NCBI GenBank assembly: GCA_934667425.1
Contig: CAKULV010000002.1
Coordinates: 6,278-70,277 of the forward strand
Direction of reading: 5' to 3'
Length of the DNA stretch: 64,000 nucleotides
DNA from: an uncultured Kiritimatiellota bacterium
GTDB lineage: Bacteria; Verrucomicrobiota; Kiritimatiellia; RFP12; UBA1067
A model generated the notes under the pieces. The model did no database searches. It had not been told where the DNA came from and saw only the letters and a list, made by a program, of their open reading frames with translations. This document shows, in pieces, positions 33,511 to 52,358 of the stretch. Every line of letters begins with the position of its first letter. Positions within the stretch are counted from its first letter, which is position 1. The position numbers and the translations under genes are program-made.

Positions 33511-35399
33511 TCCGTCTTCTCCAATCCGAGCAGGGTCTCTATGTCGCGCCCGTCCATCGACTCCTTCTCGAGAAGGGCGGTGGCGAGGATCTCGAGCTTG
33601 TCGCGGTTCTTCTTCAGAAGCTTCTCGGCCCTTGCGAACGCATCGTCGACAAGCCTCTTCACCTCTGAGTCGATGCCTTCCGCCGTCTTCTGCGAGAAGG
33701 GGGGCGGCATCGGGTCGGGCGAGAACTGGCTCGGCTCCACGAACGACTGGAACCCGTAGGTGTCGCTCATGCCGTATTTGCAGATCATGTCGCGGGCTAT
33801 CATCGTGGCCTGTTGTATGTCCTGCGCGGCGCCGGTGGAGACGTCGCCTGTCTTGATTGACTCCGCTATGCGCCCTCCGCAGCAGATGCACATCTCGTCC
33901 AGGAAGTAGCTCCTTGTGCGGTTCAGGACATCCTTCTCTGGAAGGGCCATGGTTGCGCCGAGTGCGCGCCCGCGGGGGATTATGGTCACCTTGTGGAGCG
34001 GATCGGCGTTCGGCAGGAGCAGCTGGAGGAGCGCGTGCCCCGCCTCGTGCCACGCCGTGGTCTCCCGATCCTTGTCCGTAAGGTTGGCCGACTTGCGCTC
34101 GCGCCCCCACAGCACCTTGTCGCGGGCCTCCTCCAGCGTCTCCTGCGACACGCCGGAAAGTCCCTTGCGGACGGCAAGAAGCGCCGCTTCGTTCAGCAGG
34201 TTCGCGAGGTCCGCGCCGGAGAACCCCGGCGTGCCGCGCGCGATTCGCGCAAGATCCGCGTCCGGCGCGAACTTTATCTTTGCGCCGTGCAGCTTCAGTA
34301 TGTCCTCGCGCCCCTTGAGCGACGGAAGGTCCACGTATATCTGGCGGTCGAAGCGGCCCGGACGCAGAAGCGCCGGATCAAGGACGTCAGGGCGGTTCGT
34401 GGCCGCGATTATGATCACGCCCTCGTTTGCGTCGAACCCGTCCATCTCCACGAGCATCGCGTTGAGGGTCTGGTCGTTGGAGTGCCCGCCGAGTGCGTTC
34501 GCACCCGTGCGCTTTGCGCCTACGGCGTCAATCTCGTCGATGAATATCAGGCACGGCGCGGAGCGCTTTCCCTGCTCGAACATGTCGCGCACTCGGCTTG
34601 CGCCCACGCCTACGAACATCTCCTCGAAGTCGGATCCCGAGATCGAGAAGAACGGAACCTTGGCCTCGCCCGCGATCGCCTTGGCGAGGAGGGTCTTCCC
34701 CGTGCCGGGGGGGCCTACGAGCAGTACTCCCTTGGGGATCTTGCCGCCGAGCTTCGAGAACTTGGCGGGCGACTTGAGGAATTCCACGATCTCCTGCACC
34801 TCCTCCTTGGCCTCGTCCACGCCGGCCACGTCGTCGAACGTGACCTTCTTCTTGGACTTGTCCTCGTTGAGCAGACGCGCCTTTGACTTGCCGAACCCGA
34901 ACGGGCCTCCGCCTCCGCCCATCTTCCTGTAGAAGATGAACCAGAAGAAGCCCAGCAGAAGCAGGAAGAACAGCAGCTGCTGGAAAAGCGGGCCTATCAG
35001 CGGCGAACGCTCCGTGACGGGGCAATCTATCCCCTTCTCGACGAGCCAGGACATCAGCTTCTCGTTCTCGCCCGGCACGAGGCGAACCCTGAATGCGGAG
35101 TTGGTGCCCGAATGCGGCAGATATTCGCCGCGCAGGTACGTGCTGCCCGAATCGAGGTCGCGTACGCGCTCCACCTTGGCGACGCGGTGCTCCTCCACCG
35201 CGCGCCTGAAGCCGGTGACGGAGATGTCTTCGGTCCTCTCACCGCCCGACTGGCCCAGAAAACGCATCGCCACGAATGTGCCCGCCACAATCAGAAGCGC
35301 GAGCCAGCCGCTTCTGGACGGGTTTATGTCGGCGCTTTTCGGCACGTTTCTGCCCGTACGCGCATGCGTACGTTCCTCTTTTTTCTTCTCTTGAGACAT
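33507..35399 (-). CDS. ftsH: ATP-dependent zinc metalloprotease FtsH
   Basis: [18 protein letters not shown], the SRH motif, and HEAGHAL zinc site. Start placed at the ATG at 35399 (MSQEKKKE). Confidence 0.92.
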
Positions 35400-35409
35400 A
35401 TAGCGGTAG

Positions 35410-35418
35410 AGTATATCA
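35410..35418 (-). promoter_or_regulatory. extended -10 TGaTATACT, 10 nt upstream of the ftsH ATG (leaderless candidate)
   Basis: The minus strand reads TTTGATATACTCTACCGCTATATG. Confidence 0.35.
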
Positions 35419-35617
35419 AAAAAAGCGGTTTTGTGGGGTCTGCAATGCACGGGAAGTTGAGGGGGCTGATATAATCCTTCCGCTTGGCATGGCAAAGAAA
35501 CTGCTACAGGACACGAGGCGGCGAAGCGGGGCAACGAGACATGTCTCTTCAACGGCGCGAGGGACGGGCGGTGCTTCGCGGCGGCGTTCGCCGGACTGTT
35601 CTCGCGCGACGGGCTTG

Positions 35618-35746
35618 TGCGACGACGAGGGCGTCGTCGCTACGAAATTCAACAAATGACCAAATGCAATCGTAAATCTCTACCCACTACCAACTACCCT
35701 CTACCATCTGCCTGTCGTAAATCGAAAAATCGTAAATTCGTAAATC
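35618..35746. repeat. modular intergenic repeat, copy A (GC hairpin + conserved box + CTACC heptad array + GTAAATC-type heptads)
   Basis: GCGACGACGAGGGCGTCGTCGC (35618-35639), ACCAAATGCAATCGTAAATC (35658-35677), the CTACC array (35678-35708), and CGTAAATCGAAAAATCGTAAATTCGTAAATCCC (35714-35746). Confidence 0.85.
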
Positions 35747-35763
35747 CCAATACTTCGTTTTGC

Positions 35764-35792
35764 GTTGATTCGGACGGTGGTTTGTGCTATTC
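35764..35792 (+). promoter_or_regulatory. promoter TTGATT-17-TATTCT (TGc extension) for the GH95-like gene
   Basis: -35 at 35764-35769 and -10 at 35787-35792. A GGAGA RBS precedes the ATG at 35833. Confidence 0.45.
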
Positions 35793-35832
35793 TTCGGCGC
35801 GTTTCACTCATATGCATATGGAGACCTGATTC

Positions 35833-37845
35833 ATGATTTGTACGCTTCTGTTGGCAACCATCGTGCAGTGGGAGTTCCCCCGCACCGCATCCTGCCACGA
35901 GGGGATCCCGTTCGCGGACGGGAGAACCGGCGTTCTGGTGTGGGGCGGCGGCGACACGATCAACCTGACCGTCGGCCGTGGCGACCTCTGGGACCATCGT
36001 GGCGGATATGCCTGGACGGACGAGCAGAGCTACACCAACATCTGCGCGGCGGTGGCGACACGCGACAACGATAGGCTGAAGTCCCTCTTCTCCAACGAGC
36101 CTCCGCCCAACTGGGGCGGCAGGTACAATCCATACATGCTTCCCCTTGGGCGCGTTGTCGTGAAGATCCCGGGCAAGACGGTCCGGCGCGGTGCGCTTGA
36201 CACGGCTACGGGGCTTGGTGAGCTTTCGTTCACCGACGGCACGGGCGTACGGCTTGCCATGTCGAAGGCGAGCCATGCCTTTGCCATGCAGTTCCCGAAG
36301 GATGCGGAGTATTCGGTCCGGTCGGTCCCAGGGACGGAGTTTGACGTGTGGAAGACGCTTGCGAACCGGGGATTCGAGAAGGCGCGCGTGCTGGACGGAA
36401 GTGTTATCGGTGTGGGAGGCTTTTCCTGGAAACTCCCTGCGGACGAACAGGTGTGGCTGTCTTGGACCGTTGAAGGTCGGGAATTCGTGCTCAAGACCGG
36501 GCGGGGATACAAGGTGCTTGCTGGCGGTGTGCCGTTCGATCGCATGGCGTCAGAGTCGGCCGCGCATTGGTCTGCGTTCTGGCGCGAAGGCGCCCGCGTG
36601 AAGGTGCCGGATCCGGTCGTCCAGCAGATATTCGATCTCGGAATGTACAAGTTCGGCGCAATGACCGATCCTGACGGCTTTGCCGCCGGACTTCAGGGGC
36701 AGTGGCTCGAGGATGACAGGCTCGTGCCGTGGAACGGCGACTACCACTTCAACATCAACGTGCAGGAATGCTATTCGCCGGCGTATCGCGGCGGACACTT
36801 CAAGAACCTCATGCCGCTGTTCAGGATGGTGCTTTCATGGCGGCCGCTCCTTCGCGACAATGCGCGGAAGTTCGTGGGGATAGACCACGGCTACGTGCTG
36901 CCGCATTCGGTTGATGACCGGGGCGTGTGCATCGGCGGATTCTGGACCGGCACGATAGACCACGCCTCTACCGCTTGGATCGCATCCATGATGATGCGGT
37001 ATGTGCGCTATTCCGGCGACACGAGTTTCCTGAAGTCCGGCGCGTTCGACTTCATGAAGGGCGCGATGAGCGTGTACCGGGCGATGATGGAAGAGCGGAA
37101 CGGACGGCTCTCGATCCCGATCGGACCTTCCCCCGAATGGGGTGACAGCAATGTGCAGAAGGCCGTAGGCCGGGACCCTTCGTTCCAGCTTGCGGCGGCG
37201 CATCGCCTTGCGATGGATCTCGCGGATGCCGCCGTCCTTCTCGGCGAATCGCCAGATCCGATGTGGCTCGATGTCTCGAAGCGTCTGCCTGCATTCACCG
37301 ATGGGCCAAATGGCTTCCAGCTTTTCGAGGGCCAGCCATTCATCGCGTCGCACCGCCACCACTCCCACATGGCCGGCATCTATCCGTTCGACACTGTGGA
37401 TTTCGGCGACCCGAATTCGCGCCGTGCCGCATATGCGACGTACCGGAACTGGGTGTTCAAGGGTCCGGGAGAATGGAGCGGATGGTGTGTGCCATGGGCG
37501 GCGATCCTGCATACGCGATTCGGGAGCGCCGATGCCGCAGTCCAGATGCTCCACAACTGGAAGGTGTTCTACAACAATCCGGGACACGGGTCTTTGCACG
37601 ATGCCTTCCGCAGCGGGTTCACCGTGTTCACCGGCCGCCCCACGATCATGCAGATGGACGGACAGTGCGCGGCCGTGACTGCAATACTCGAGTTGATGGC
37701 GCATGAGACGAATGGGCGCGTGGAGTTCTTCAAGGGCTGTCCTGACGATTGGAAGGAAGTGTCGTTCGAGAACCTTGCCCTCTCGGATGGCCGCCGGGTC
37801 TCGGGCTCCCGCATAAACGGGAAGGTGAGAGTAGAGGGGTTTTAG
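35833..37845 (+). CDS. GH95-like (alpha/alpha)6 glycoside hydrolase
   Basis: GRTGVLVWGGGDTINLTVGRGDLWDHRGG and GLQGQWLEDDRLVPWNGDYHFNINVQECYSPAY resemble GH95 signature stretches. The TAG stop is the first TAG of repeat copy B. Confidence 0.55.
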   Translation: MICTLLLATIVQWEFPRTASCHEGIPFADGRTGVLVWGGGDTINLTVGRGDLWDHRGGYAWTDEQSYTNICAAVATRDNDRLKSLFSNEPPPNWGGRYNPYMLPLGRVVVKIPGKTVRRGALDTATGLGELSFTDGTGVRLAMSKASHAFAMQFPKDAEYSVRSVPGTEFDVWKTLANRGFEKARVLDGSVIGVGGFSWKLPADEQVWLSWTVEGREFVLKTGRGYKVLAGGVPFDRMASESAAHWSAFWREGARVKVPDPVVQQIFDLGMYKFGAMTDPDGFAAGLQGQWLEDDRLVPWNGDYHFNINVQECYSPAYRGGHFKNLMPLFRMVLSWRPLLRDNARKFVGIDHGYVLPHSVDDRGVCIGGFWTGTIDHASTAWIASMMMRYVRYSGDTSFLKSGAFDFMKGAMSVYRAMMEERNGRLSIPIGPSPEWGDSNVQKAVGRDPSFQLAAAHRLAMDLADAAVLLGESPDPMWLDVSKRLPAFTDGPNGFQLFEGQPFIASHRHHSHMAGIYPFDTVDFGDPNSRRAAYATYRNWVFKGPGEWSGWCVPWAAILHTRFGSADAAVQMLHNWKVFYNNPGHGSLHDAFRSGFTVFTGRPTIMQMDGQCAAVTAILELMAHETNGRVEFFKGCPDDWKEVSFENLALSDGRRVSGSRINGKVRVEGF

Positions 37846-37949
37846 TTGGTAGATGATAGTTGGTAGTTGGTAGTGGGTAGACGGTAGGTTTTGGTGGGAG
37901 AGGCGCAACTATCCTCTACCATCTACACTCTACCAACTATCCACTGTAG
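37843..37949. repeat. modular intergenic repeat, copy B (GGTAG-heptad arm, 21-nt loop, CTACC arm; no AT-rich core)
   Basis: The left arm is 37843-37888 and the right arm is 37910-37949. A perfect 12-bp complement is GATAGTTGGTAG (37855-37866) with CTACCAACTATC (37930-37941). Confidence 0.85.
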
Positions 37950-37971
37950 TGTCGGAAAGGTCTGGTGCGGA

Positions 37972-39786
37972 ATGATGCGGATAATGAGCAAGCTGCTGTG
38001 CGTGGCTGCCCTTGCGGCAAGTGTCGCATTCCCGGCGGATGCGTCTGCCGGTGACGTCTTCGACGGGCTTTCCGTCTGGCTGGACTTTCGCGGCGATGGG
38101 CCGTCGGCGGGCGGCGGCGCCGTCGGGAACCTTATAGACGCCATGGCGGGCAGTCCGCTCGGCGGAAGCCACGAGACCAACCGGGCCGCACTCGTTTCGG
38201 TTGAGGTTGTGCCTCCGGCCTTGCCGTGGGAGACTAACGTTGTGAAGGCGCTTCGCCTTCCGCAATGCTTCGACGCGGAAACGGGAAAGATCATGCCGGT
38301 CGCGCTTGACCTGCCGCAGGCCGCCGTGGATGCCGCTGTGCAGACGGCCTATGTCCGCTTCAGGTGGAATGGCGCCCCGAACCCGTCCAAGGCATACTCC
38401 GAGTGGCTGATCCTGAATGGCTACAACTGGGGAGCTGCTTCAGGCTGGGGGCTTGGCGTCAGCAATGTCGCGAATGCAGACCCGGCTCGCGGGAACCTAT
38501 GCTGCATGGTGCCGCAGAAGACGATGGTGTTCAACTGGAATGACGGCTTCAGCTTGTCTCCGGGAGTGTGGTACGACCTGTTTGTCCAACTCTCGCCCAG
38601 TGAGGACGAGACGAAGACGGTGTTCTCTTTCTTCCTTCTGAAAGAGCCGTCGAAGACAATCGTGGATGGCATGCTGTTGTGGTGGATGCCATCCTTCGCG
38701 ACGGCCTCGGTGACGGTGCAGGCTCCGCTTTCCGTTTCGCCGGCGCATCGCACGCTGCGCCTTGGGTCGGAGAACACGGCTACGTCCTTCGTCGGGAGCG
38801 ACGACAACTGGGGCGCGTATTCCAAGGGCTTTAGGGGAGAGATCGCCGCCTACATGGCCTGGTCGCGCAAACTGACGGAAGAGGAACGCTGGCAGGTCGT
38901 GCGCGGAAGTTTCGGCTACGACTGGCGTTTCGGCGTCCCGAACGGAAGCTCGGCGGAATTTGCCGCCGATGCGTCAGGTGAAGCGAGGACGACGGTAACC
39001 GCGAAATGCGATTCCGTCGCATTCCTCCCCGGGAAACTTACCGAGGAGTCGCCGACGCTAACGATCAAAGGCGAGGTCATACCGCGCGAAACCGGGATAG
39101 GCAAGATCCTTTCGATAGCGCCGATCCTTTCCGATGGCGCGGAGGCGAGAATTGATGTGTCGATCAACGGCGTACCGCTCGGAACCTATGGCCTGTCGTC
39201 TCGCGTGGGCTGCAACATCGTAATCCCCGGCAGGCTCTGGGAAGCCATGGCGGATGGCTGTGCGACGATAGCCATGACAAGGACCGTGCCGTTCGTCGGC
39301 GACCTTTCACTTGACGCGATCACGCTTTGCGGAGGCTGGAGGATGGGCGGCATAATGACGCGTGAGGGCTATGCCCGTTCGCGCTATTCCATCGGCGCGG
39401 TTTCGCCGCGATCCATCCAACGGGGCACGATGATCTCCTCGGCGAGCGAGCTGCGGACAATCGACATCATGGCGCACGTGCCAAAGGGTGCGATGGATGC
39501 GGCCACATACACGATGTCCTTCACTGTCTCCGGCTTTGGCGCAAACGACAATGCCCAGCCGCATTCGATCTCGGTGAATGGAACGCAAGTCGCCGTGTTC
39601 CCGGAATTGGCGGCCGGCTCCACCTATCAGGCCAGAATCCCGGCATCCTGTCTGACAGCCGGCGAGAATGTATTCCGCCTCTCCAACGATGCGCCCGTCA
39701 TTTCAGGCGCAACCCGTTGGGCGGCATATTCCGGCTTCGAGATCAATGTCCGGCCGCGCAGCGGCTTCATGGTGATCTGCAGATGA
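37972..39786 (+). CDS. secreted LamG (concanavalin-like) domain protein
   Basis: Signal peptide MMRIMSKLLCVAALAASVAFPADASA. GFRGEIAAYMAWSRKLTEEERWQV is a typical Laminin_G_3 C-terminal motif. The protein ends ...RSGFMVICR. Confidence 0.65.
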   Translation: MMRIMSKLLCVAALAASVAFPADASAGDVFDGLSVWLDFRGDGPSAGGGAVGNLIDAMAGSPLGGSHETNRAALVSVEVVPPALPWETNVVKALRLPQCFDAETGKIMPVALDLPQAAVDAAVQTAYVRFRWNGAPNPSKAYSEWLILNGYNWGAASGWGLGVSNVANADPARGNLCCMVPQKTMVFNWNDGFSLSPGVWYDLFVQLSPSEDETKTVFSFFLLKEPSKTIVDGMLLWWMPSFATASVTVQAPLSVSPAHRTLRLGSENTATSFVGSDDNWGAYSKGFRGEIAAYMAWSRKLTEEERWQVVRGSFGYDWRFGVPNGSSAEFAADASGEARTTVTAKCDSVAFLPGKLTEESPTLTIKGEVIPRETGIGKILSIAPILSDGAEARIDVSINGVPLGTYGLSSRVGCNIVIPGRLWEAMADGCATIAMTRTVPFVGDLSLDAITLCGGWRMGGIMTREGYARSRYSIGAVSPRSIQRGTMISSASELRTIDIMAHVPKGAMDAATYTMSFTVSGFGANDNAQPHSISVNGTQVAVFPELAAGSTYQARIPASCLTAGENVFRLSNDAPVISGATRWAAYSGFEINVRPRSGFMVICR

Positions 39787-41843
39787 GCGCAAACGACGGA
39801 CTTCAAAGGGGGGCGTGCATGGCGGCCCTCGTGTCAGGCATGGCCTGGCTTGCGTCGGCCTCGGCGGCGGAGGGCTTCTATCGCGTGGGGCATTCCAACG
39901 GGCGCTGGGATATCCTGGATCCGCAGGGGCGCGTCACGTTCCTGCGGGGCGTGGATCATGTGCGCTATCGTGGGGTCTACACTTACGTCCATGGCGCGCC
40001 GTTCGGACACTACGAGCGCTGGAATGACGCGCATTACGCGAATGTGGCTGAATGGTGCGCGGAAACGTCGGACCGTCTGCGCACTTGGGGCTTCAACATG
40101 CTGGGCGGAGGCGAAGGCGAGGAAATGCGCGGACGAGGCTTCGCCTACGCGAAGTCGTTGGCGCTGAGCCACGGCTTGACGGTTGGCACGGGCAACAATG
40201 CGACAGGCGCGGGGAAGGAGGGGCTTTGGATATGCCCGCACGAAGGCTCCCCGTGCACCGAGTTCCCCAACGTGTTCCACCCCGGCTTCCCGGCATACTG
40301 CGACGGCGTGGCGGCGGAAAAGTGTGCGCCGTTGCGCGATGACCGCGATCTTGTGGGATATTTCATAGACAACGAGCTTGCCTGGTGGGGACGCGGCCCG
40401 CGGGCGACAGGTCTCTTTGACAGTACAAGGGCGTTGCCTCCGAGCCATACTGCGCGACAGGCGGTCGAGTCGTTTTTGCGTGAACGCGGGATTCCTTCAG
40501 AAGAGGCGACGGTCCCCGTATCCGTCAAGCGCGAGTTCCTGCGTATGGCCGCAGAAAAGTATTTCACCACGACCGTGGCGGCCATTCGACGCCATGACCC
40601 AAACCACATGGTGCTTGGCGCCCGGTTCGCCGGTGTGGAGGTTAACGACCCGATTGTATGGGAAGTCGCGGGACGCCATTGCGACATGCTGACGGTCAAC
40701 TGCTACCCATGGGCCGATCTTGATCGCAATGTCATCCTCACACGTCAGGCCGGCGGCGAACGGATCGCGGATGTGTTCCGTCGCCTGTGTTCCTTGGCCG
40801 GGCGACCTCTGTTCGTGACGGAATGGAGCTTTCCGGCGTTGGATACGCCGTGTCCGAGCACGCACGGTGGAGGCATGCGCTGCCGGACCCAACGCGAAAG
40901 GGCGCGTGCCTCGGAACTGTTTGCGCGAACATTGCTCGCGATGCCGGAGATCGTTGGCTACAGCTATTTCATGTGGGTGGACGAGCCTCCAGAAGGCATC
41001 AGCACGGTCTACCCGGAAAACTCAAACTATGGGCTCGTGAATGAACGGGGCGAACCATACGGGGATTTGACGCGGATGTTTGCGCAGTTGCATCGCAACG
41101 TGAAGAAGCTTCGTTGCGCACCGTTGCCAAAGGAACGTCCGGGCGGCGTGTTGGCCTCAAGGTTCGCCAGTTTGCATGGATTGAAGCCAGCGAATGGCTT
41201 TGCCGTGACAGGCAACGATTGGAGATGGACGAATGATGCGGGGCTGACGATAGAGGGCGGCACCGGTGCGGGACGAATGGTGCGGCGCACGACGCTGAAA
41301 GGCGCGGATCTCGGCACTGTCGGTGCGATGGGTCAGTACACGCTGGATGGCGCATCCGTATGGCATGAGCTTGAGACCGTTTCGGATGTGCGTTTCGCAG
41401 ACGGGGCCTTGGAATTGACGGCTTCCCGTCGCGGATGGAAGGGCGTTTCGTTCGAGATGACCTTCCGGCTGACGCTTGACGCCAGCCGTCCGGAGTTCAT
41501 GCTTGAACTCCTGCGGGTCCGCAACAGGGGCAGTGCGCCAATCCGCTTCAAGGCGTTCTTCCTGTGCCAGTATTCGCCGTTTGCCCGCGAGGGCGTCTTG
41601 CGCAGGAAACGTCCGCCGACGTGGGGGGACGACATCGCCACCGGCTGGCAGGCCAGGGATGGGCGCGTGTTCTCCGCGATGACACGGGCGCCGGATGTCG
41701 CGGTATTCAACTACTACGTCGATCCGCAGAGCGTGCATCCTGATGCCGCGTTTGCGCCGTCCGACCTGCCTGCGGAACTGTCGCCTGGCGCGGAGTATGA
41801 ATGCGCCGGCAGGGTGTGGATGCTCTGCCGTGGGGGTAGATGA
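39783..41843 (+). CDS. clan GH-A TIM-barrel glycoside hydrolase, family not assignable by eye
   Basis: ATGA overlap with the upstream gene and a signal peptide. FIDNELAWWG looks like an NE acid/base motif, and LFVTEWSFPA looks like a nucleophile E motif. Confidence 0.55.
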   Translation: MSANDGLQRGACMAALVSGMAWLASASAAEGFYRVGHSNGRWDILDPQGRVTFLRGVDHVRYRGVYTYVHGAPFGHYERWNDAHYANVAEWCAETSDRLRTWGFNMLGGGEGEEMRGRGFAYAKSLALSHGLTVGTGNNATGAGKEGLWICPHEGSPCTEFPNVFHPGFPAYCDGVAAEKCAPLRDDRDLVGYFIDNELAWWGRGPRATGLFDSTRALPPSHTARQAVESFLRERGIPSEEATVPVSVKREFLRMAAEKYFTTTVAAIRRHDPNHMVLGARFAGVEVNDPIVWEVAGRHCDMLTVNCYPWADLDRNVILTRQAGGERIADVFRRLCSLAGRPLFVTEWSFPALDTPCPSTHGGGMRCRTQRERARASELFARTLLAMPEIVGYSYFMWVDEPPEGISTVYPENSNYGLVNERGEPYGDLTRMFAQLHRNVKKLRCAPLPKERPGGVLASRFASLHGLKPANGFAVTGNDWRWTNDAGLTIEGGTGAGRMVRRTTLKGADLGTVGAMGQYTLDGASVWHELETVSDVRFADGALELTASRRGWKGVSFEMTFRLTLDASRPEFMLELLRVRNRGSAPIRFKAFFLCQYSPFAREGVLRRKRPPTWGDDIATGWQARDGRVFSAMTRAPDVAVFNYYVDPQSVHPDAAFAPSDLPAELSPGAEYECAGRVWMLCRGGR

Positions 41844-41980
41844 TAGTTGGTAGTTGGTAGAGTTTAGGGGAATTTACGATTTACGATTTACGATTGCATT
41901 TGGCCATTTAGGTATTTGATTTTACCTGCTACCAACTACAATCTATCAACTACCAACTACCCTCTACCAACTACCCACTA
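41835..41980. repeat. modular intergenic repeat, copy C (full: GGTAG arm + AT-rich core + CTACC arm)
   Basis: The arm is 41835-41862. The core TTTAGGGGAATTTACGATTTACGATTTACGATTGCATTTGGCCATTTAGGTATTTGATTTTA is 41863-41924. The CTACC array is 41925-41978. Confidence 0.9.
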
Positions 41981-42598
41981 AAACCTAAGCAGATGGCGGC
42001 GGAGGGCGATGGCGACGGCCTCGGCGCGATTGGCGGCGCCGATTTTCGAGAAGATGAGGTTCAGGTGCTCCTTCACGCTGTCCTCGCGGATGCCGAGCTG
42101 ATGCGCAATGTCCGCGTTGGTGAGCCCGCGCACGATCGACGACAGGATCACTTCCTGACGCTCGGTGAGCTTCTGCACCGGCGGGTCGGTGGCGATCTGT
42201 TTCTCGATTTCCGGCGACACCCAGCGTTTGCCGGCGGCAATGGCCCTTATCGCCGTAAGCAGCTGGGCATTGGCGTTTGACTTTGTGATCGCGCCATCGG
42301 CTCCCGCTTCGAGTGCGCGAGACAGGTCGTCGGACACAGTCGAGGTGGTTAGGATAAGCACACGGGTGTGCGGAAGCCGCGACTTGATCTCCTGTGTGGC
42401 GGAGATTCCGTCCCTAACCGGCATCATGATGTCCATGATCACGATGTCCGGCCTGTTGCGCATGGCCTTGCGGATGGCCACATCTCCGTCGTCTGCCTCT
42501 CCGATGACGCGGATGCCGGACTCCGGCTCAAGCAGGGCCGCAAGCCCCATGCGCACGATGGCGTGGTCGTCGGCGATCAGTACGGTCGTCTCCTTCAT
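41978..42598 (-). CDS. NarL/LuxR-family response regulator
   Basis: REC domain (VLIADDHAIVR...DIVIMDIMMP) plus a LuxR HTH (LTERQEVILSSIVRGLTNADIAHQLGIREDSVKEHL). Confidence 0.9.
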   Translation of the reverse strand: MKETTVLIADDHAIVRMGLAALLEPESGIRVIGEADDGDVAIRKAMRNRPDIVIMDIMMPVRDGISATQEIKSRLPHTRVLILTTSTVSDDLSRALEAGADGAITKSNANAQLLTAIRAIAAGKRWVSPEIEKQIATDPPVQKLTERQEVILSSIVRGLTNADIAHQLGIREDSVKEHLNLIFSKIGAANRAEAVAIALRRHLLRF

Positions 42599-44709
42599 GC
42601 GTTCTCCTGTTTGGGCAATGCCATCTCGACGACTGCGCGTGTGCCGTGTCCGGGGGCGCTGCTGATCTTCAAGGTGCCCCTGAATGCCTTGATCCTCTCC
42701 ATTATTCCCTGGATGCCGAAATGGCCCTCGGCTATGCCGGGACGACTTGCCACGTCAAAGCCGCATCCATCGTCCGCCACGGATATGCGAAGCATTCCGT
42801 TGTCAATCGCGCCTGCGACGTGGATTTCCTTGGCGTGGCCATGGCGGACTGCGTTGACCGCCAGTTCGCGAATGATGCAGAGGATGTCGTGCGCGGTCTT
42901 GTCAGAGAACTTCGTCCGTGATACATTGAATCTCACGCCAAGCCGCGCCTCGCCGATGTGGCGCAGAAGGGCCATGCGTATCGCATCGCCCATGACCCTC
43001 TCTTCGAGCGCTCTGCTGCGAAGGTCCCAGATGCAGTTGCGAAGCTCTTCGCGGCAGGAATCGAGGGTGCGTGACGCGATCCCAAGGTGAAGCCTTGCCT
43101 TTCTTCCGTTGGAGTCGAGAAAGCGATCCGCCGAATCTATCTGCATGGATACCCCGGTCAGGTTCTGGGAGATGGAGTCGTGCAGCTCCACTGCGAGGCG
43201 GGTGCGTTCGTCGATGCGCAACTCAGAGCTGACCTTGGCGACCTGCGCCTTGAAGAGCTCGTGTCCCTTTCGCGCGGCCAGGCGGCGCAGCGCGGCGTTC
43301 CACGTGAGGATCCCGGCGAGGACGGTGAGCAGGGCGGCGATCACGACCGCGAGTCGGCGAGGGGTCCACCACGGCGGACGCCTCAGGACGACCAGGTCGG
43401 CGGCGGCCCGTGGCACGAGGACAATCCCGCAGATATGCGGGAAGTCCGAGTTCGGGCGCCAGCTGTCGGTCTCCATGACGCAGACGCCGGAGATCTCCAC
43501 CTCGCAGCCGATGGACAGGCCCCGCGCGGCGGCTTCGCAGGCGTGGAGGTCGACGGGGACGGAGTGCCCGTCGTCGTCGATGACCATGCGGCGGGAGCCG
43601 TCCTGCGGGAGGATGCGGATGATGCCGTTGAGCCGGATCGCCCGGCCGTGGTAGGCGTAGTTGAAGCGGGGCGTCCCGGATTCGTGAAGGAGCAGGCTCC
43701 CGGCGCGAACGGCCCGCGCCGGCTCGAGGCGCCGGTCCGGCGGCGCCGCCTCCCGCCATGTCGCGCGCGCCAGGTTGATCTGGTAGAGGTCGGTCTCCGG
43801 GAACCCGACGATCTCGATCCTGTCGCCATAGCGCGGCGCGGCGCCGTCCGCCGTCCGGGCGCCGAGCGTGGAGCCGTCCTTCCGGCGCACGAGCACGTTC
43901 CGTCCCTGCCACACGGCGACGACCCGCCCGGACGTGCGGCGCCGGCCGATGCCGTTCAGCTCGATGGGCTGCATGTTCTGCGGCAGGTCCTCGAGCGCGG
44001 GGACGTCGAAGGGCGAGGTCGGCGGGCGGACGACGGTGATGAAGTCCTCGGCGCAGACGAGGATGTAGCGCCCCAGGTGCCGGCGATACCCGTGGCCGGA
44101 GTGGGTGCAGACGCCCTGCACGGTGACGACGGCCCCCTCGTACCGCGCCCGGTTCGCCGACGGGCCGGAGGGACTGCGGGGAAGCGCCGCGTAGACCGTC
44201 CGCGAGCCGTCGCTCAGCACGAAGAAGAGCGTCCGTGGGTCGATCTCGTCAATGAAGATGTCGCGGACGGTCCCGGTGAACGAGACCGACTGGAAGTCGA
44301 GCGTCCCGTCGAGGAGCTGCCCGGCGGTCACGGCTTTCGGCGGCGGCGGGGCGTCTCGGCCCAGGACGCTGAACGCGCGGCAGCTCGGGTACACCAGGTT
44401 GCGGCTGTCCGTCTCGGTGCGTCCCGTCACGCGGATCCGGTCGCCGGCCGACACCGACGCCCCCGGACGCGGCGTGACGTCGTACAGCCCGATGGCGCCG
44501 GTGCCGTCGGCGATCGTCATGAATCCGCCGGGCGTCAGGGGCCTGGGCGGGTAGAGTACCGTCCCCACGATGTCGAAGCGCACGCCATCCGCCGGACGCG
44601 AGTAGGTCGCGTCGAGCAGCTCTCGCACGGTGCGCAGCGCGCATGGCGTCTCCGCGCGCGCCGGAGCGAGCGCAAGCGCGGCCATAAGCAAAGGCAGGGA
44701 TCGGAACAT
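42595..44709 (-). CDS. sensor histidine kinase (HisKA_3 + HATPase) with large extracytoplasmic N-terminal sensor
   Basis: Internal ATG at 44709 with a signal peptide (MFRSLPLLMAALALAPARA). After a TM helix come ERTRLAVELHDSISQNL (H-box) and an HATPase domain (DDGCGF, GIQGIMER). The gene overlaps the response regulator start. Confidence 0.85.
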   Translation of the reverse strand: MFRSLPLLMAALALAPARAETPCALRTVRELLDATYSRPADGVRFDIVGTVLYPPRPLTPGGFMTIADGTGAIGLYDVTPRPGASVSAGDRIRVTGRTETDSRNLVYPSCRAFSVLGRDAPPPPKAVTAGQLLDGTLDFQSVSFTGTVRDIFIDEIDPRTLFFVLSDGSRTVYAALPRSPSGPSANRARYEGAVVTVQGVCTHSGHGYRRHLGRYILVCAEDFITVVRPPTSPFDVPALEDLPQNMQPIELNGIGRRRTSGRVVAVWQGRNVLVRRKDGSTLGARTADGAAPRYGDRIEIVGFPETDLYQINLARATWREAAPPDRRLEPARAVRAGSLLLHESGTPRFNYAYHGRAIRLNGIIRILPQDGSRRMVIDDDGHSVPVDLHACEAAARGLSIGCEVEISGVCVMETDSWRPNSDFPHICGIVLVPRAAADLVVLRRPPWWTPRRLAVVIAALLTVLAGILTWNAALRRLAARKGHELFKAQVAKVSSELRIDERTRLAVELHDSISQNLTGVSMQIDSADRFLDSNGRKARLHLGIASRTLDSCREELRNCIWDLRSRALEERVMGDAIRMALLRHIGEARLGVRFNVSRTKFSDKTAHDILCIIRELAVNAVRHGHAKEIHVAGAIDNGMLRISVADDGCGFDVASRPGIAEGHFGIQGIMERIKAFRGTLKISSAPGHGTRAVVEMALPKQENA

Positions 44710-44783
44710 GGCCGAGATTATATCAGAATTGGCGAAAGCGGTATGCCCCCCGAAAGTGGGGCTTGTTTGCGTTGAAGGTGGCG

Positions 44784-44792
44784 TGGTAAAAT
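44784..44792 (+). promoter_or_regulatory. extended -10 TGgTAAAAT, 8 nt upstream of the lipoprotein ATG (leaderless candidate)
   Basis: Read directly, in the divergent region shared with the histidine kinase. Confidence 0.4.
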
Positions 44793-44800
44793 CATGCGCC

Positions 44801-47200
44801 ATGAAAGGATTATGCATTTGCGCACGTGGCATCGCGGGGGCTGCGGCCCTGTTCGCCGGCCTCCTGGGGCCGTTGGCCGCGTCCTGTTCGCCCGGCTGGG
44901 AGAACGTCAGTCCCGCCCGCCGGGAGATCCCCCCGGCGAAGGTCGTCTGGCGGGCGGCGCCGGACGGCGTGCGCGTCGAGCGCATAGACGGGGCGGAGGG
45001 CACGGTCTCCGTGACGAACGGCGAGGTGCGCATCCGCAAGACCGGCGCGCGCGGCTACATTGTGGTGAGCTGGCCTTCCTTTGGCTGGCCGAAGGGGAAG
45101 CTCATCCGCTTCTTCGCGGAAGTCGAGGCGAAGTCCGGCAGACCGGAGAAAACGTACGGAATGCTCTCGCCATGGTCGGGTGAGCGGCACGTTCCGGCTG
45201 ATGACCGTTGGGGCCGCTACGAGGGATATCTGAGCGGCGGCATCCACATGCGCAAGCTGATCAACTCCGCGCCCGGCACGCCTTACTGGAAGTACCGCAA
45301 CTTCGAGCCCTCGTCAGACGCGGTGACGCCGATGATCGTCATTGGCGGTGCGCCAAGCGAATCGGTATGGCGGCAGATCGGGGCCGAGGACGGCGTGGCG
45401 TCGGCAAAGCTGTGGAACGACCGGTTCCGCAGACTGAGTAAGCCAGACCATTCTTCCGATATGCAGGATGCCGATGCGTTTGCCCGCGCACTTGCGGCGG
45501 ATACTGACCACTCGGCGGAAATCCGCACCGTCAACGGGGTGTCCGCGTTCTTCGTGGACGGGAAGCCCGCGCCGCCCATCGTCTACAAGGCGTCCGAATG
45601 GAGCGCGCAGGACGGCTCCCGCTACGGCGGGAAGGCACTGCAGGATCTCGGCGGCGTGCGAATCGGCATCGCCGACCTGCGCCTCGGGGACCTCGGCTTC
45701 GACGGGTTCCGGGGCCCCTGGGACGCGCGCGGCTTTGACGCGAAGGCGGCCGCGAAGACGATAGAGAGGCAGATGCGCATCGGCGAGAAGTCCCTCTTTA
45801 TGCTGGCGATCAACACGAGCGCCTACCCGGCATTCACGGAGAGGGAGCATCCGGACGAGGTCTGGGTCAGGAAGGACGGCTCCGTCGCCCTCGGCAATTC
45901 CGGCAGCATCACGCCCGACACGTACAACGACGGCGGCGACGTGGATCCGGGCGACCGCCGCTGGCCGTGGGTTTCCTACGCCTCGCCCTCGTGGCGCGCG
46001 GCGATCAAGCGGGTGACGGCCGAGCTCTTCGCGGAACTCCGGCGGCAGGGGCTCATGAAGCGGGTCATCGGCGTGCACTACTGCGGCTACCACGACGGCC
46101 AGTTCGCGTCGCCGATCCTCGACTATTCGCCGGCCGCGAAGGCCGAGCACGCGCGGTACGTGCGCGAGCGGGGCCTGCGCCCCGGCGACCCGGCCGGAAG
46201 CTTCGAGTTCTTCTCGCGCCAGCTTGGCTTCCGCGCGCTGGAGGACTTCTCCCGGGAGGCGAAGCGCCTGGCGGGGAAGCCCATCGTCGCGGCCATGTGG
46301 GACATGACGCCGTTCGGCATCTCCTTCGACGTCACCTCGTTCACGTATTCCGACGCCGTGGACATCATCGCCCCGCAGGCCATGTACCAGCGGCGGATGC
46401 CGGCGCTGTCGCAGGGGATCAACGTGCCGACCGCGTCGTTCCACCGGCACGGGAAGATGCTGTGGATGGAGTTCGACTTCCGCACGTGGGCGGCGCTCGA
46501 CCAGTGGGTCCGGGACCTTGTCGTCTACAAGGGGCTCAACACGGCGGACGACCTTGTCTGCTGGCAGACCCTCCTGCGCAAGCACGCGGGGATGCTGAAC
46601 GCCGCCCGCATGGGCTGGTGGATGTACGACATGTCGGGCGGCTGGTACTCGCCGCGCGAGATCGCCGAGGACTTCCGCCAGGTGGTGGACGTGCGCCGGG
46701 CGCTTGACGCCGTCGCCCCCGACCCGTGGCATCCCGACGTCGCGCTCGTCATCGACGAGGTGGAGATGGCCGGGCTGAAGACGGCCGGAAAGCTCGACTT
46801 CCGTCTGCGCTGGGAGGACTATGGCGCGTCCGGGGTGCCGTACGAGACGTACCTGGCGGCGGACTTCGACTCCGACCCGGCGCTGGCCGGGCGGCACAGG
46901 CTCGTGGTGCGCGACGGCTTCAGGCGCCTGGACGCGGACGGGCTGCACGCGCTGGCCGAGAAGGCCGGGGCGTTCGTGGCCTGCGCGCCGGGCGTGCTGG
47001 AGGTCGACATGAACGGCGACTTCATGTCCGTCCATTGCCTCGTGCCGGGAACGCATCCGGTGCGCCTGCCGTTTGCCGCCCGCGCGACAAACGTGAGGGA
47101 CGGCTCGCGGGCCGTCGGCACGCGCCTTGACCTGGCGATGACCGCCGGCGAGACGCGGTGGTTCAGGATCGAACGGCTGAAGGGAGGGGATGGGAAATGA
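44801..47200 (+). CDS. putative lipoprotein, glycosidase-like, family unknown
   Basis: MKGLCICARGIAGAAALFAGLLGPLAASC has a lipobox-like LAASC. GC3 is very high. The rest of the sequence suggests a TIM-barrel enzyme, but no family motif is recognised. Confidence 0.55.
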   Translation: MKGLCICARGIAGAAALFAGLLGPLAASCSPGWENVSPARREIPPAKVVWRAAPDGVRVERIDGAEGTVSVTNGEVRIRKTGARGYIVVSWPSFGWPKGKLIRFFAEVEAKSGRPEKTYGMLSPWSGERHVPADDRWGRYEGYLSGGIHMRKLINSAPGTPYWKYRNFEPSSDAVTPMIVIGGAPSESVWRQIGAEDGVASAKLWNDRFRRLSKPDHSSDMQDADAFARALAADTDHSAEIRTVNGVSAFFVDGKPAPPIVYKASEWSAQDGSRYGGKALQDLGGVRIGIADLRLGDLGFDGFRGPWDARGFDAKAAAKTIERQMRIGEKSLFMLAINTSAYPAFTEREHPDEVWVRKDGSVALGNSGSITPDTYNDGGDVDPGDRRWPWVSYASPSWRAAIKRVTAELFAELRRQGLMKRVIGVHYCGYHDGQFASPILDYSPAAKAEHARYVRERGLRPGDPAGSFEFFSRQLGFRALEDFSREAKRLAGKPIVAAMWDMTPFGISFDVTSFTYSDAVDIIAPQAMYQRRMPALSQGINVPTASFHRHGKMLWMEFDFRTWAALDQWVRDLVVYKGLNTADDLVCWQTLLRKHAGMLNAARMGWWMYDMSGGWYSPREIAEDFRQVVDVRRALDAVAPDPWHPDVALVIDEVEMAGLKTAGKLDFRLRWEDYGASGVPYETYLAADFDSDPALAGRHRLVVRDGFRRLDADGLHALAEKAGAFVACAPGVLEVDMNGDFMSVHCLVPGTHPVRLPFAARATNVRDGSRAVGTRLDLAMTAGETRWFRIERLKGGDGK

Positions 47201-49299
47201 CGGCGAAGCCGATGCTCGTGTCCGCCGGCGCGCTTGCGTCGCTTGCGCTCCAGGGCGCGTCACTGTCGAACGAGGCGATGGAGATCCGGTTCGCGGACGC
47301 GTCGCGCTCGTTCGCCGTCGAGTCGATCGTCAACCGCCTCGACGGCGAGCGCCGGTTCGTCCGCGGGACGGCGGACGGCAAGGGGCCCCATCTCTTTGAG
47401 CTCGTGTTCGCCCGCGTTGACGCGACGGGCGGCGTCGAGCGCGCGTATCTCCGCGACAGGAACGAGTCCCGCGAGAGGGACCTCTCCGTCTCGGGCGAGA
47501 CGGCGGTCATCTCGCTGAAGGGCTACGACCTGCCGGGCGAGCCGGGCGCGGTCGACGTCGAGGCCCGCGTGACGCTGGCGGCGGGGAGCCCCTTCGCGGA
47601 ATGGCGCATCAGGGTCGCGAACCGCAGCGCGACGTGGGGCCTCGACAGGACGCGGTATCCGTGCCTGCGCGGAATAGTCCGCCCGGGGGAGGCCGACGTG
47701 CTCCTGCCGCACGCGGGACATGGCGCGCGCCTGCTGAGGCGCTTCGACGGGAACGCCCGCAACCGCGTGTGCGCCTGGGGGGAGTACGAGTACCCCTCGT
47801 ACTACCCGATGATGACCGCGTACATGCTTGATGGCGCGGGGCTCGCGGTGTATGCCGACGATCCCGACGCGCGCGTGAAGACGCTGTGGGCGAACGGCCT
47901 TGACTGCTGGTTCGAGACGCCCGTGGAAAACGCCGGGCTCGTCGGCCGGGCGGCGGACGGTCCCGGCTACGTCGTCCGCACGGAGGCGTTCCGCGGCAGC
48001 TGGTGGAACGCCGCGAAGGCCTACCGCCGGTGGGCGCTTCGGCAGAAGTGGTGCGCGAAGGGCCCGATCGCGAAGCGCGCCGACTACCCGAAGGCGATGA
48101 GCGAGCCGTCCTTCTGGCTCTGCAGCTACTGGTTCGGGGCGGAGAGCTTCACGAACAAGTTCAACCGCATCCGCGCGGAATGCCCGGACCTGAAGGTCGG
48201 CGTCCGCTGGTACGACTGGAGCCTGCCCGGGTTCGGCGTCTATCCCGAGATGCTTCCGGCGAAGAAGGGCGTGGCGGAGGCCGGCGCGGTCGTGTCCCGG
48301 CTGGGCTACACGGTCATGCCGTACGTCAACGCCCGCATCTGGGATTCCGTGCTGGCCTCGTTCCGCTACGCGAAGAAGGATATGTGCCGGAAGCCGGACG
48401 GCTCGCCGTTCGTCGAGCAGTGGGGGCTGAAGGGTGTGAGCGGGATCCATCGCCGGCGGGACTACGGCATCATGTGCCCGGTGACGCCGGATTGGCAGGG
48501 CGTCCTTCGCGACATCGCCGCGGGCACGGTCGCGGCCACGAGCGCCAGCGGCATCTACTATGACCAGCTCGGCTGCGCGCCGCCGCGCGGCTGCCGCAAC
48601 CCCGGCCACGGGCATCCCCTCGGGGGCGGGCGCTGGTGGGCCGACGGCAACCGCGAGATCATGCGACAGGCCCATGCGGCCCTCAACCCGAGGGGGATCG
48701 CGGTCACGACGGAGGGCACGGCGGAATGCTACATGGACAGTTGCGACGGCTTCCTCGCGGTGACCGTGCCGACGGTGGCCGACGTGCCGTTCTACGCCGC
48801 CGTCTACTCGGGCTACACGGTCTACTTCGGCACGCGGACGGCGCCGAGGATGGATCCCGCAAAGGCCTTCCCGCTGATGGCGCGCGACTTCATCTGGGGG
48901 TTCGCCAACGGCTGGAGCGACGACTGGTCGGGGCCGGACGCCCTGAATGCGAACCGCGCGGCGGCCGTTCGCTTCGCCCTGGCCCGCCAGCGGTTCTCGG
49001 ACTTCCTTGTCTACGGCACGCTCATGGGCGAGCTGAAGGTCGAGGGCCCCTTGCCGGAGGTCGCGTTCGGGGCCTGGGAAGAGCTCCACAACCGGAGGAA
49101 CCCGGTGGAGGGCACGATGCCCGCCGTCATCGGCGCCTGGTGGCGCGACTGTGACGCCACGCGCCTGATGCTGCTGGCGGTGAACGTGTCGGGCGAGCCG
49201 CGCACGGTCCGCTTTCGCGTGCCGGGGCAGGAGGGGCTTGCCGAGCTCAGGCTCGCCCCGCGGTCGATTGGGTCTTACGAACGGAAGCTGCGCGAGTGA
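47197..49299 (+). CDS. uncharacterised protein, putative glycoside hydrolase-like
   Basis: ATGA overlap with the upstream gene. It is a long ORF with strongly coding GC3 bias. The motif YYDQLGCAPPRGCRNPGHGHPLGGG is noted, but no family is assigned. Confidence 0.55.
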   Translation: MTAKPMLVSAGALASLALQGASLSNEAMEIRFADASRSFAVESIVNRLDGERRFVRGTADGKGPHLFELVFARVDATGGVERAYLRDRNESRERDLSVSGETAVISLKGYDLPGEPGAVDVEARVTLAAGSPFAEWRIRVANRSATWGLDRTRYPCLRGIVRPGEADVLLPHAGHGARLLRRFDGNARNRVCAWGEYEYPSYYPMMTAYMLDGAGLAVYADDPDARVKTLWANGLDCWFETPVENAGLVGRAADGPGYVVRTEAFRGSWWNAAKAYRRWALRQKWCAKGPIAKRADYPKAMSEPSFWLCSYWFGAESFTNKFNRIRAECPDLKVGVRWYDWSLPGFGVYPEMLPAKKGVAEAGAVVSRLGYTVMPYVNARIWDSVLASFRYAKKDMCRKPDGSPFVEQWGLKGVSGIHRRRDYGIMCPVTPDWQGVLRDIAAGTVAATSASGIYYDQLGCAPPRGCRNPGHGHPLGGGRWWADGNREIMRQAHAALNPRGIAVTTEGTAECYMDSCDGFLAVTVPTVADVPFYAAVYSGYTVYFGTRTAPRMDPAKAFPLMARDFIWGFANGWSDDWSGPDALNANRAAAVRFALARQRFSDFLVYGTLMGELKVEGPLPEVAFGAWEELHNRRNPVEGTMPAVIGAWWRDCDATRLMLLAVNVSGEPRTVRFRVPGQEGLAELRLAPRSIGSYERKLRE

Positions 49300-49328
49300 A
49301 AACAAACAAAAAGGAATCGAGGCAAATC

Positions 49329-51914: not shown

Positions 51915-51916
51915 AA

Positions 51917-52030
51917 GATGGTAGTTGGTAGATGGTAGTTGGTAGGTTTTAGGGAATTTGCGATTTGCGATTTGCGATTGCATTTGGCCATTTAGGTATT
52001 TGATTCTACCCACTACCAACTACCATCTAC
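51917..52030. repeat. modular intergenic repeat, copy D (full)
   Basis: Perfect 18-bp inverted repeat: GTAGATGGTAGTTGGTAG (51928-51945) with CTACCAACTACCATCTAC (52013-52030). It flanks the core TTTTAGGGAATTTGCGATTTGCGATTTGCGATTGCATTTGGCCATTTAGGTATTTGATT. Confidence 0.9.
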
Positions 52031-52062
52031 GATTACATTGAGCCATTTGAGGATTTGCCGTG

Positions 52063-52083
52063 GCGACGACGCCCTCGTCGTCG
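52063..52083. repeat. GC hairpin CGACGACG-CCCT-CGTCGTCG (second copy, inverted, at 35618-35639)
   Basis: An 8-bp perfect stem. The copy in element A is the exact reverse complement, with loop AGGG. Confidence 0.8.
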
Positions 52084-52151
52084 TGAGGAAATCGCCGTGC
52101 AACCCGCCCTCGTCGTATAGAGAATGGCCGTGTGGGAGTGTAAATGGCAAC

Positions 52152-52176
52152 GGTCGCGACAAGCGCGACCCTCCCG
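52152..52176. repeat. hairpin motif GGWCGCG-ACAAG-CGCGWCC followed by CTCCCG (other copies at 62281-62306 and, inverted, 62341-62365)
   Basis: Three copies were read directly. The stem sequence differs between copies, but pairing, the ACAAG loop and the CCTCCCG tail are kept. Confidence 0.75.
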
Positions 52177-52250
52177 TGCAACGCACGACGGCGAGGGCGC
52201 ACCCCTCTTGCGACCGCTTGCGCGGCTCACTTCGTTCGGGGGATATGTCG

Positions 52251-52337: not shown

Positions 52338-52349
52338 TTGCCTGATTTG

Positions 52350-52358
52350 TGGTATACT
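52350..52358 (+). promoter_or_regulatory. extended -10 TGgTATACT upstream of the Gfo/Idh/MocA gene
   Basis: It lies immediately downstream of repeat copy E and 33 nt before the ATG, with a GAAAGGAA RBS in between. Confidence 0.45.

Follow-up and report, generated by a model that had tools for sequence, protein, structure and literature searches.

A repeat-filled convergent gap and related copies

The DNA analysed in this study (the window) is a stretch of 64,000 nt from contig CAKULV010000002.1 of a gut Kiritimatiellota bacterium, and all positions given are those of the window. An initial annotation had described an AT-rich intergenic element family with five copies at 35.6, 37.8, 41.9, 51.9 and 52.3 kb, here called A to E, and had taken copy C as its archetype. 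The genes near the copies encode FtsH, a GH95 glycosidase, two proteins without a Pfam family, a NarL-type two-component pair, a DUF6259 protein, a Tat-exported Gfo/Idh/MocA oxidoreductase, a 3-keto-disaccharide hydrolase and RhaA. All five copies were confirmed by their sequence and by motif counts far above chance: the degenerate 26-nt core pattern GATTTRCGATTGCATTTGGYCRTTTR has four matches in the window and none in 100 shuffled sequences, and GGTAGNTGGTAG, at one mismatch or fewer, is found 28 times against 0.31 expected. The G+C content of the elements is 0.32–0.46 compared with about 0.62 for the window, as expected from the AT-richness first noted. Copy C is one of many interchangeable combinations of short modules. 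A modular, multi-copy, intergenic family was thus correctly recognised, but it is not a discrete element with copy C as archetype, and copy B even lacks the core.

Copy C lies between the convergent genes for a 708-aa protein and a response regulator. The gap between them (41844–41977) is filled exactly, as had been claimed, and the stop codons of both genes are overlapped as well, that of the response-regulator gene being the TAG of GGTTTTAG (41978–41980, minus strand). The layout consists of an arm of GGTAG heptads, a single AT-rich unit and an inverted arm of the same heptads. The box in the AT-rich unit reads ATTGCATTTGGCCATTTAGGTATTTGATT, and the whole unit has a G+C content of 0.32 and is 89% identical to the corresponding unit of copy D. 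Next to the arms stand CCCACTAAAACC on one side and CCCCACGG on the other. No open reading frame (ORF) longer than 21 aa is present in the gap, in agreement with the description of the element as ORF-free. The long hairpins predicted from the arms were borne out by RNA folding of copy C, which gave -55.1 kcal/mol for the plus strand (z = -5.2) and -60.3 kcal/mol for the minus strand (z = -7.2). The longest perfect inverted match is 12 bp in copy B and 18 bp in copy D, the lengths originally reported, and 14 bp rather than 12 bp in copy C.

The window was compared with 19 loci of three GTDB representative genomes, about 25 informative metagenome loci and strain contigs (loci and contigs are identified by L numbers below). 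At least eight recurrent modules were recognised across the loci compared: g, (GGTAGNT)n with 2–12 units; t, GGTTTTAG, a diverged terminal heptad; a, (GATTTNC)n, including GATTTTTC; B, GATTGCATTTGGYCATTTRGGnATTTGATGATTT; V, GCCGTGTAGAAGTGTAGA; P1, GGTAG followed by GGCGATTTCGATGAAATCGCC; P2, GGGAGG followed by a hairpin; P3, GT[AG]G followed by CGACGRCG-CCCT-CGYCGTCG; and X, a P3 split by a nested 46-nt hairpin. The invariant AT-rich unit is (GATTTNC)n and then GATTGCATTTGGYCATTTRGG. About 75 distinct a-B units can be aligned; they are near-invariant from the last heptads through the box, and their flanks are unrelated. The a array precedes B in every case and turns its side toward the neighbouring gene, at 14 gene starts and 11 gene ends. 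An a+B+ (hairpins) B-a- arrangement is frequent, in which inverted a-B pairs cap both ends of a cluster; such pairs enclose many composites of 170–560 bp, and solo units, copy C among them, are also common. The modules recur in about 60 loci of several related gut Kiritimatiellae genomes. Mosaics with other motifs were seen in about 40 loci, and all copies seen are extragenic or overlap no more than a stop codon; elements begin 0–50 nt from stop codons and modules span from there up to promoters. The strict 26-nt box has 9–10 matches per metagenome-assembled genome (MAG), counted in fragmented assemblies whose contigs break at the repeats, with no complete genome among them. The modules are non-coding, multi-copy and lineage-restricted, they are confined between stop codons and core promoters, and they are much better conserved than the neighbouring genes. 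Two regulator genes that are homologous, each with an a-B unit next to it, share only about 70% DNA identity over 335 bp.

The remaining copies combine these modules in other ways (Table 1). Copy A, with an overall span of 35650–35745, and copy E (52253–52340) are inverted relative to copy C and copy D (51912–52033). Copy B is built of hairpin arms alone, with an inverted match of 33 nt at 79% complementarity and a DNA fold of z = -4.4, and the stop codon of the GH95 gene is the TAG of its t module. Copy D begins 2 nt past the TGA of an 872-aa gene and lies together with copy E in a 478-bp intergenic region (51915–52391) of the form a+B+ (hairpin modules) B-a-, where the a-B units of D and E pair over about 50 bp in a 441-nt RNA fold (-167.5 kcal/mol, z = -5.8). 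Copy E ends about 11 nt upstream of the extended -10 element TGGTATACT (52350–52358) of the Gfo/Idh/MocA gene (52392–53708). Several members had been overlooked in the initial annotation, namely the GT[AG]G palindromes beside copy A and in the D-E interior, the modules across 52127–52254 and a distant P2 doublet. The palindrome beside copy A folds as single-stranded DNA with -12.5 kcal/mol (z = -5.2), and several strain contigs end there. The P2 doublet belongs to a sixth repeat-bearing intergenic region (62229–62368) without heptads and without core box, in which a terminator-like GC hairpin (62229–62258) stands ahead of the doublet.

Table 1. Repeat modules in the window, with strand and basis or composition.
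Feature	Position	Strand	Composition and remarks
Copy A mosaic, P3	35619–35643	-	REP-like palindrome with GTAG head, GTAG-CGACGACG-CCCT-CGTCGTCG; read from sequence
Copy A, core box B with its last heptad	35653–35678	-	GATTTACGATTGCATTTGGTCATTTG; exact pattern match
Copy A, GGTAG heptad array	35680–35712	-	repeat and motif search
Copy A, second GATTTNC-type array	35715–35748	-	GATTTAC, GAATTTAC, GATTTTTC; repeat search
Copy B	37838–37950	+	GGTTTTAG, GGTAG array (37848–37887), inverted CTACC array (37909–37941)
Copy C, left arm	41835–41860	+	GGTAG heptads; overlaps final codons and TGA stop (41841–41843) of the 708-aa gene
Copy C, AT-rich a-B unit	41862–41924	+	GTTTAGGGGAATTT, three GATTTAC heptads (41872–41895), then GATTGCATTTGGCCATTTAGGTATTTGATT; pattern match, alignment
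Copy C, right arm	41929–41985	-	GGTTTTAG, then GGTAG heptads on the minus strand (CTACC on plus)
Copy D	51916–52031	+	GGTAG array, GGTTTTAGGG, three GATTTGC heptads, box B, inverted CTACC array
D-E composite interior	52032–52254		degenerate second box and P3, V, P2, X modules
D-E interior, P3	52060–52083	+	GTGG-headed palindrome
D-E interior, V	52127–52144	+	GTAG-rich motif
D-E interior, P2	52152–52175	-	GGGAGG-headed hairpin
D-E interior, X	52183–52254	-	P3 palindrome split by nested 46-nt hairpin insert
Copy E	52252–52338	-	GGTAG array, box B (52284–52309), GATTTNC heptads, outer end GGGGAATTT...GTAG
P2 doublet	62281–62368		inverted GGGAGG-headed hairpins, P2- 62281–62305 and P2+ 62343–62368

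REP-like heads, lineage distribution and strain differences

A speculative likeness of the GTAG-containing palindromes to repetitive extragenic palindromic (REP) elements had been proposed, and this part of the proposal was strengthened. Among 38 distinct P3 copies the head is GTAG in 16 and GTGG in 19 (35 of 38 together). The P3 stems are 97.3% paired, and compensatory A-T to G-C and C-G to T-A changes are found in 19 double-change cells, a value reached in none of 500 shuffles. In P2 the GGGAGG head is constant and the stem exists in at least 20 different perfectly complementary sequences. In locus L064 a REPIN-like 120-bp unit, made of two P3 copies in inverted orientation whose heads point outward, is repeated three times in tandem, and L081 carries three tandem P2-P3 pairs. 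GTAG is present in every g heptad; g arrays run straight into REP heads (GGTAGTAG followed by CGAC, GGTAGTGG followed by CGACGG) in 13 of 87 cases and into a arrays in 27 of 87. Because heptad arrays run directly into REP heads, the flagged heptad arms are tandem amplifications of the GTAG-containing head. With regard to the usual REP hallmarks, the modules beside copies A, D and E are imperfect palindromes of 20–40 bp with a GC-rich stem, and copy C has heptad arms instead; an unpaired GTAG/GTRG head is found in P3 and likewise in P1; and alternating dimers and clusters mixed with other motifs, as in bacterial interspersed mosaic elements (BIMEs), are present. Stable hairpins are predicted on either strand, from RNA folds of copy C and DNA folds of other modules. 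The range of GTAG-tagged REP-like repeats within the Planctomycetes-Verrucomicrobia-Chlamydiae (PVC) superphylum extends to this Kiritimatiellae lineage, where the head is unusually amplified into heptad arrays.

The initial annotation had allowed for an element confined to the window, and this was not what we found: the family is present in at least three representative genomes, one of them labelled Kiritimatiellaeota, and in many metagenome contigs. The Gfo/Idh/MocA protein has homologues, 81–85% identical, which their sources label Kiritimatiellae or Lentisphaerae. Two of the representative MAGs with the family, CAVJWR01 and CAVFWS01 (L001–L019), are titled 'Limosilactobacillus gorillae' and 'Clostridium sp. 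CAG:138'; these titles look wrong, because the loci have 57–66% G+C and modules in common with the Kiritimatiellaeota locus L006. Within 3 kb of Gfo orthologues on other Kiritimatiellae contigs (protein identities of 92%, 86% and 85%) no module is present, yet the extended -10 element (TGTGGTATACT, TATGGTACACT, TTTGATATAAT) is kept at the same place. In the window, repeat-laden DNA starts directly upstream of the Gfo promoter. Since the module-free orthologues keep the -10, the element is not the source of the promoter. The family is both lineage-restricted and dispensable. The a array lies at no constant distance from the -10: the interval is about 9 to 55 nt depending on the locus, and other modules sometimes intervene. 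This variable spacing argues against a fixed promoter role, against a UP element in fixed phase and against the protein-binding iteron array that had been among the roles first suggested. A BLAST search of plasmid and phage collections gave no match to the D-E composite, and the core box had no match in IMG/VR. Separately, (GGTAGNT)x4 matches 17 viral contigs of IMG/VR (L034–L050), which are mostly low in G+C, carry other heptad arrays (GGCTTGG, GGCTGTA) beside the match and often hold it at contig ends. Most of these viral arrays are unrelated and resemble the short tandemly repeated heptanucleotides (STRR) of cyanobacteria; only L038 (66% G+C) resembles the family, with TTTTAG and then GGTAGTT units at the contig end. 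A literature search on repeats in Kiritimatiellae or Kiritimatiellota returned nothing relevant.

Within one species, strains differ in how the elements are put together: heptad numbers change, modules are replaced, inverted or inserted inside others, and whole blocks are duplicated around inserted genes. One ENA gut-metagenome contig is 100% identical to the window over 12.5 kb, and related contigs come from samples with 'Hadza' in their name. After the same response-regulator stop codon, at least four module sets are found in contigs whose 6.5 kb of flanking DNA is 98–99% identical to that of the window and whose regulator protein is identical. The order is t g B- a- g- in the window, L021–24 and L057; t g X P3 in L020, where the genes beyond it (DUF4838 and two FGE-sulfatase genes) differ as well; and t a+ B+ P3 P2..., with the core in opposite orientation, in L028 and L054. 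The two flanking genes are the same in L054, where the gap measures about 330 bp (134 bp in the window) and the B/a junction holds a nested P2 hairpin. An 8–9 bp direct repeat beside this nested P2 lies inside the heptad array and is not a convincing target-site duplication, because the periodicity of the array can explain it. In the D-E gap, strains differ in the number of g units (4 vs 8) and a units (2 vs 3), and X is inverted in one of them. The window has no counterpart of an AAA_14/DUF4143 ATPase gene that lies complete in the D-E gap of L030 (1438–2598) and truncated in that of L032 (2173–2493). On both sides of this extra gene stands a direct copy of one module block, roughly 270 bp long, and these duplicates look like the result of Campbell-type integration, or of its reverse, via recombination between repeats. 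Copy A has 22 bp of extra a heptads beside the box in strain L086. At 6622–11431 of L020, the DUF4838 and two FGE-sulfatase genes replace the 708-aa, 604-aa and GH95 genes of the window, with the breakpoint inside a heptad array, where an assembly mis-join is possible. Contigs ended inside elements in 5 of 10 cases at the regulator gene and in 7 of 10 upstream of ftsH, as well as at several loci of the representative genomes, which is the usual signature of dispersed repeats.

A probable mosaic repeat system and its rivals

Taken together, copy C is probably one local form of a system of mosaic intergenic repeats that is carried by a clade of gut Kiritimatiellae and resembles the BIMEs of E. 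coli and the Neisseria intergenic mosaic elements (NIMEs). The repeats turn over rapidly and occupy precisely the DNA left unconstrained by selection between stop codons and core promoters. In this reading the g arrays are tandem extensions of the GTAG head and pair with inverted copies into long, slippable hairpins. Heptad numbers would then change through slipped-strand mispairing, and homologous recombination between dispersed copies could exchange, invert and duplicate sets of modules. The GT[AG]G-tagged palindromes may spread, or may formerly have spread, as single-stranded hairpins by a REP-associated tyrosine transposase (RAYT) of the HUH type encoded elsewhere in the genome. Stable hairpins at stop codons and mRNA 3' ends are likely a side effect and not the reason for the repeats, and the same likely holds for the portable stretches of homology, which would make glycan-utilisation genes easier to gain and lose. 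It is tempting to speculate further that the heptad arrays, rather than being plain microsatellites, are the product or the landing pad of a RAYT-like HUH enzyme that re-nicks and re-copies the 7-nt head, and that a-B-capped blocks act as a recombination scaffold by which glycan-utilisation genes are swapped at stop-codon 'sockets' in a repeat-based cassette exchange; we regard this extension as improbable.

Several results weigh against the mosaic-repeat explanation. No RAYT or IS200 gene was detected in the roughly 0.63 Mb of genome fragments examined by a motif scan and by tblastn with E. coli RAYT and IS608 TnpA queries, and the Pfam scan of the window genes gave no Y1_Tnp domain, other transposase or integrase. 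Clustering of ORFs near the modules likewise yielded no recurrent transposase-like ORF. Neither an empty site nor a clear target-site duplication was recovered, and the strains compared at the gap between the response-regulator and 708-aa genes gave no empty allele. The strain differences rest on short-read metagenome assemblies with possible mis-joins at repeats; the main alleles recur in independent assemblies (L054/L028 and L031/L032). The least explained part of the family is the a-B unit, which lacks the combination of GTAG head and palindrome and is AT-rich, non-palindromic and much better conserved than the genes beside it. Because it is near-invariant across species whose genes share about 70% DNA identity and keeps a fixed, gene-facing polarity, its conservation could reflect a selected function, for instance protein binding, and not selfish spread.

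Both alternatives that start from the a-B unit are ranked below the mosaic-repeat explanation. In the first, a-B is the terminal inverted repeat of a non-autonomous transposon similar to miniature inverted-repeat transposable elements (MITEs), mobilised in trans by a DDE transposase or by a tyrosine transposase associated with terminal inverted repeats (TIRYT) encoded elsewhere, and the REP-like hairpins are secondary insertions. Inverted a-B pairs do bound many composites as terminal inverted repeats would, the D and E units pair with each other, and the a side is outermost in every case; in addition, terminal-inverted-repeat families tied to tyrosine transposases have been documented (PMC3733652). 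However, the interiors differ in nearly every composite, where a transposon family would have a homogeneous interior and an autonomous relative, solo units are common and outer boundaries vary. No convincing target-site duplication was found, the repeat in L054 included, and no transposase recurs beside the units. An autonomous transposon between distant inverted a-B pairs was rejected at L058, where the enclosed genes are an ordinary two-component system of a histidine kinase and an NtrC-type regulator. A MITE-like origin of the family is unlikely.

The second alternative is that a-B is a selected, protein-bound cis-element (a site for a nucleoid-associated protein or silencer, an insulator, or a UP-like enhancer) with the hairpin modules as passengers. 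The conservation and polarity described above are what would be expected of it; about half of the units lie directly upstream of extended -10 promoters, and a unit of 32% G+C stands out in a genome of 62%. Against this alternative stand the variable spacing and the intervening modules, the orthologous promoters in related species that work without the unit, and the nearly equal number of units that abut gene 3' ends, including copy C, which in its convergent gap has no promoter to serve. Moreover, strains whose neighbouring proteins are identical can, at one and the same locus, have the unit, have it inverted or have it replaced. We consider a function of this type rather improbable.

A role in RNA was also weighed, since a bidirectional terminator, an mRNA 3'-end stabiliser and a small RNA gene had been among the candidates listed initially. 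The hairpins might be selected as bidirectional attenuators, as 3'-end stabilisers or as stalling structures at stop codons such as those reported for E. coli REPs. They are stable on both strands and close to stop codons, which copies B and C even include, and Rho might load on the arm (CTACCAA)n, which is rich in C and free of G. A canonical intrinsic terminator can be dismissed because no T-run follows the hairpins; none of the eight terminator-like sites in 35300–52500 falls at an element. Half of the units are upstream and not downstream of genes, and arm length and composition vary freely between strains, which makes selection of the hairpins as RNA elements improbable. That the core encodes a small regulatory RNA is highly improbable: it is conserved and intergenic, but it has no conserved internal structure and no promoter or terminator of its own, it lies in both orientations relative to its neighbours and its heptad number varies. 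In Rfam 15 only a tRNA-Pro exceeded the gathering threshold in the window and the elements gave noise alone at E values up to 5, so nothing supports a small RNA gene.

Other identities were rejected as well. An integron attC or cassette array does not agree with the lack of an integrase among the window genes, with the genes' own extended -10 promoters and mixed orientations, or with heptads that, read directly, are unlike GTTRRRY. The plant-telomere-like TTTAGGG of the core is present as a single copy and is taken as coincidence. The likeness of TACCNNC to the NarL heptamer, near a gene for a NarL-type regulator, is a loose match, and the arrays are found at many unrelated loci.

Known repeat systems and minor features of the window

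The closest parallels are the GTAG REPs and BIMEs. REPs usually number more than 100 per genome, and copies of them flank a cognate RAYT gene. GTAG-tagged REPs occur in the PVC superphylum, and GTGG heads predominate in the GTAG-20 family of Opitutus terrae (PMC3733652). Like the elements of E. coli, Pseudomonas, Stenotrophomonas (SMAGs) and O. terrae (GTAG-17 to -20; PMC3733652, PMC2817692), the palindromes described here have GC-rich stems of 8–9 bp, an unpaired GTAG/GTGG head and compensatory changes, and they form extragenic dimers, tandem clusters and mosaics with other motifs whose organisation varies between strains. In contrast to these, the Kiritimatiellae arms are 7-nt tandem arrays that repeat the GTAG head 2–12 times instead of single palindromes, AT-rich non-palindromic a-B caps are present, no cognate RAYT was found in the 0.63 Mb covered, and the host phylum is Kiritimatiellota. 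In Anabaena variabilis, GTAG-15 REP dimers are nested in AT-rich long palindromes, and the published consensus contains ATTTGATT, which also ends box B (PMC3733652). The AT-rich inverted-repeat frame is thus a shared trait, whereas host phylum and frame sequence differ, and the halves of the Kiritimatiellae frame hold variable heptad arrays and also occur alone. Mosaic intergenic regions are also known from Neisseria (PMC3733652). The NIMEs, composed of dRS3 and RS repeats, are alike in that gaps are built wholly of interleaved short repeats that vary between strains and act as recombination substrates beside accessory genes. Their sequences are unrelated, however, and NIME boundaries are formed by the 20-bp dRS3, a CGTC-type REP that is also a phage integration site, without heptad arrays.

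Two further systems are similar in form. The BOX elements of pneumococci have three modules in the fixed order boxA-(boxB)n-boxC. They share with the present family a modular build, a variable internal tandem module, complementary ends that fold into a long hairpin, an intergenic location and the lack of a transposase of their own; with at least eight modules in many orders and orientations, the Kiritimatiellae family is not a member. The STRR heptanucleotides of cyanobacteria, reportedly described by Mazel and co-workers in 1990, are likewise intergenic tandem heptads of a few to about a dozen units, in several sequence types and with no known function. This likeness is one of form only, as the units GGTAGNT and GATTTNC are unlike the STRR units, the hosts are Kiritimatiellae and not heterocystous cyanobacteria, and the Kiritimatiellae arrays are joined to REP heads and form hairpins in inverted pairs. 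The distinctive features of the family are the GTAG head amplified into heptad arrays and the conserved AT-rich cap; otherwise it is a BIME/NIME-like mosaic and points to no new kind of mechanism.

The repeats explain why assemblies of Kiritimatiellae genomes fragment at particular intergenic sites, and they mark hot spots of gene-content difference between strains, with 98–99% identical flanking DNA, of these poorly studied gut glycan degraders, such as the GH95 block that takes the place of a sulfatase-maturation block and the extra ATPase gene. Potentially, the variable heptad arrays could serve as strain-typing markers. If a cognate HUH transposase exists, the family would be a convenient case for the origin of REP heads and mosaic clusters.

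Some minor features of the window were recorded as well. The ftsH gene (33507–35399, minus strand) has an extended -10 element, TGATATACT, at 35410–35418, which is kept in all strain contigs; because it is only about 10 nt upstream of the ATG, the ftsH mRNA is suggested to be leaderless or nearly so. The ftsK coding sequence contains a perfect in-frame 21-bp duplication (31820–31863), and a DegT-type aminotransferase ORF has, near its start, an in-frame 15-bp unit repeated 3.1 times (GAAGTGCGCCAAGGC, 60880–60925). Third-position G+C is 0.96 in a RraA-like ORF (13302–14057) compared with 0.72–0.86 in its neighbours. A gene for tRNA-Pro(GGG), at 55339–55415 on the minus strand and the sole Rfam/ARAGORN match in the window, lies antisense between the 3-keto-disaccharide hydrolase gene and rhaA.

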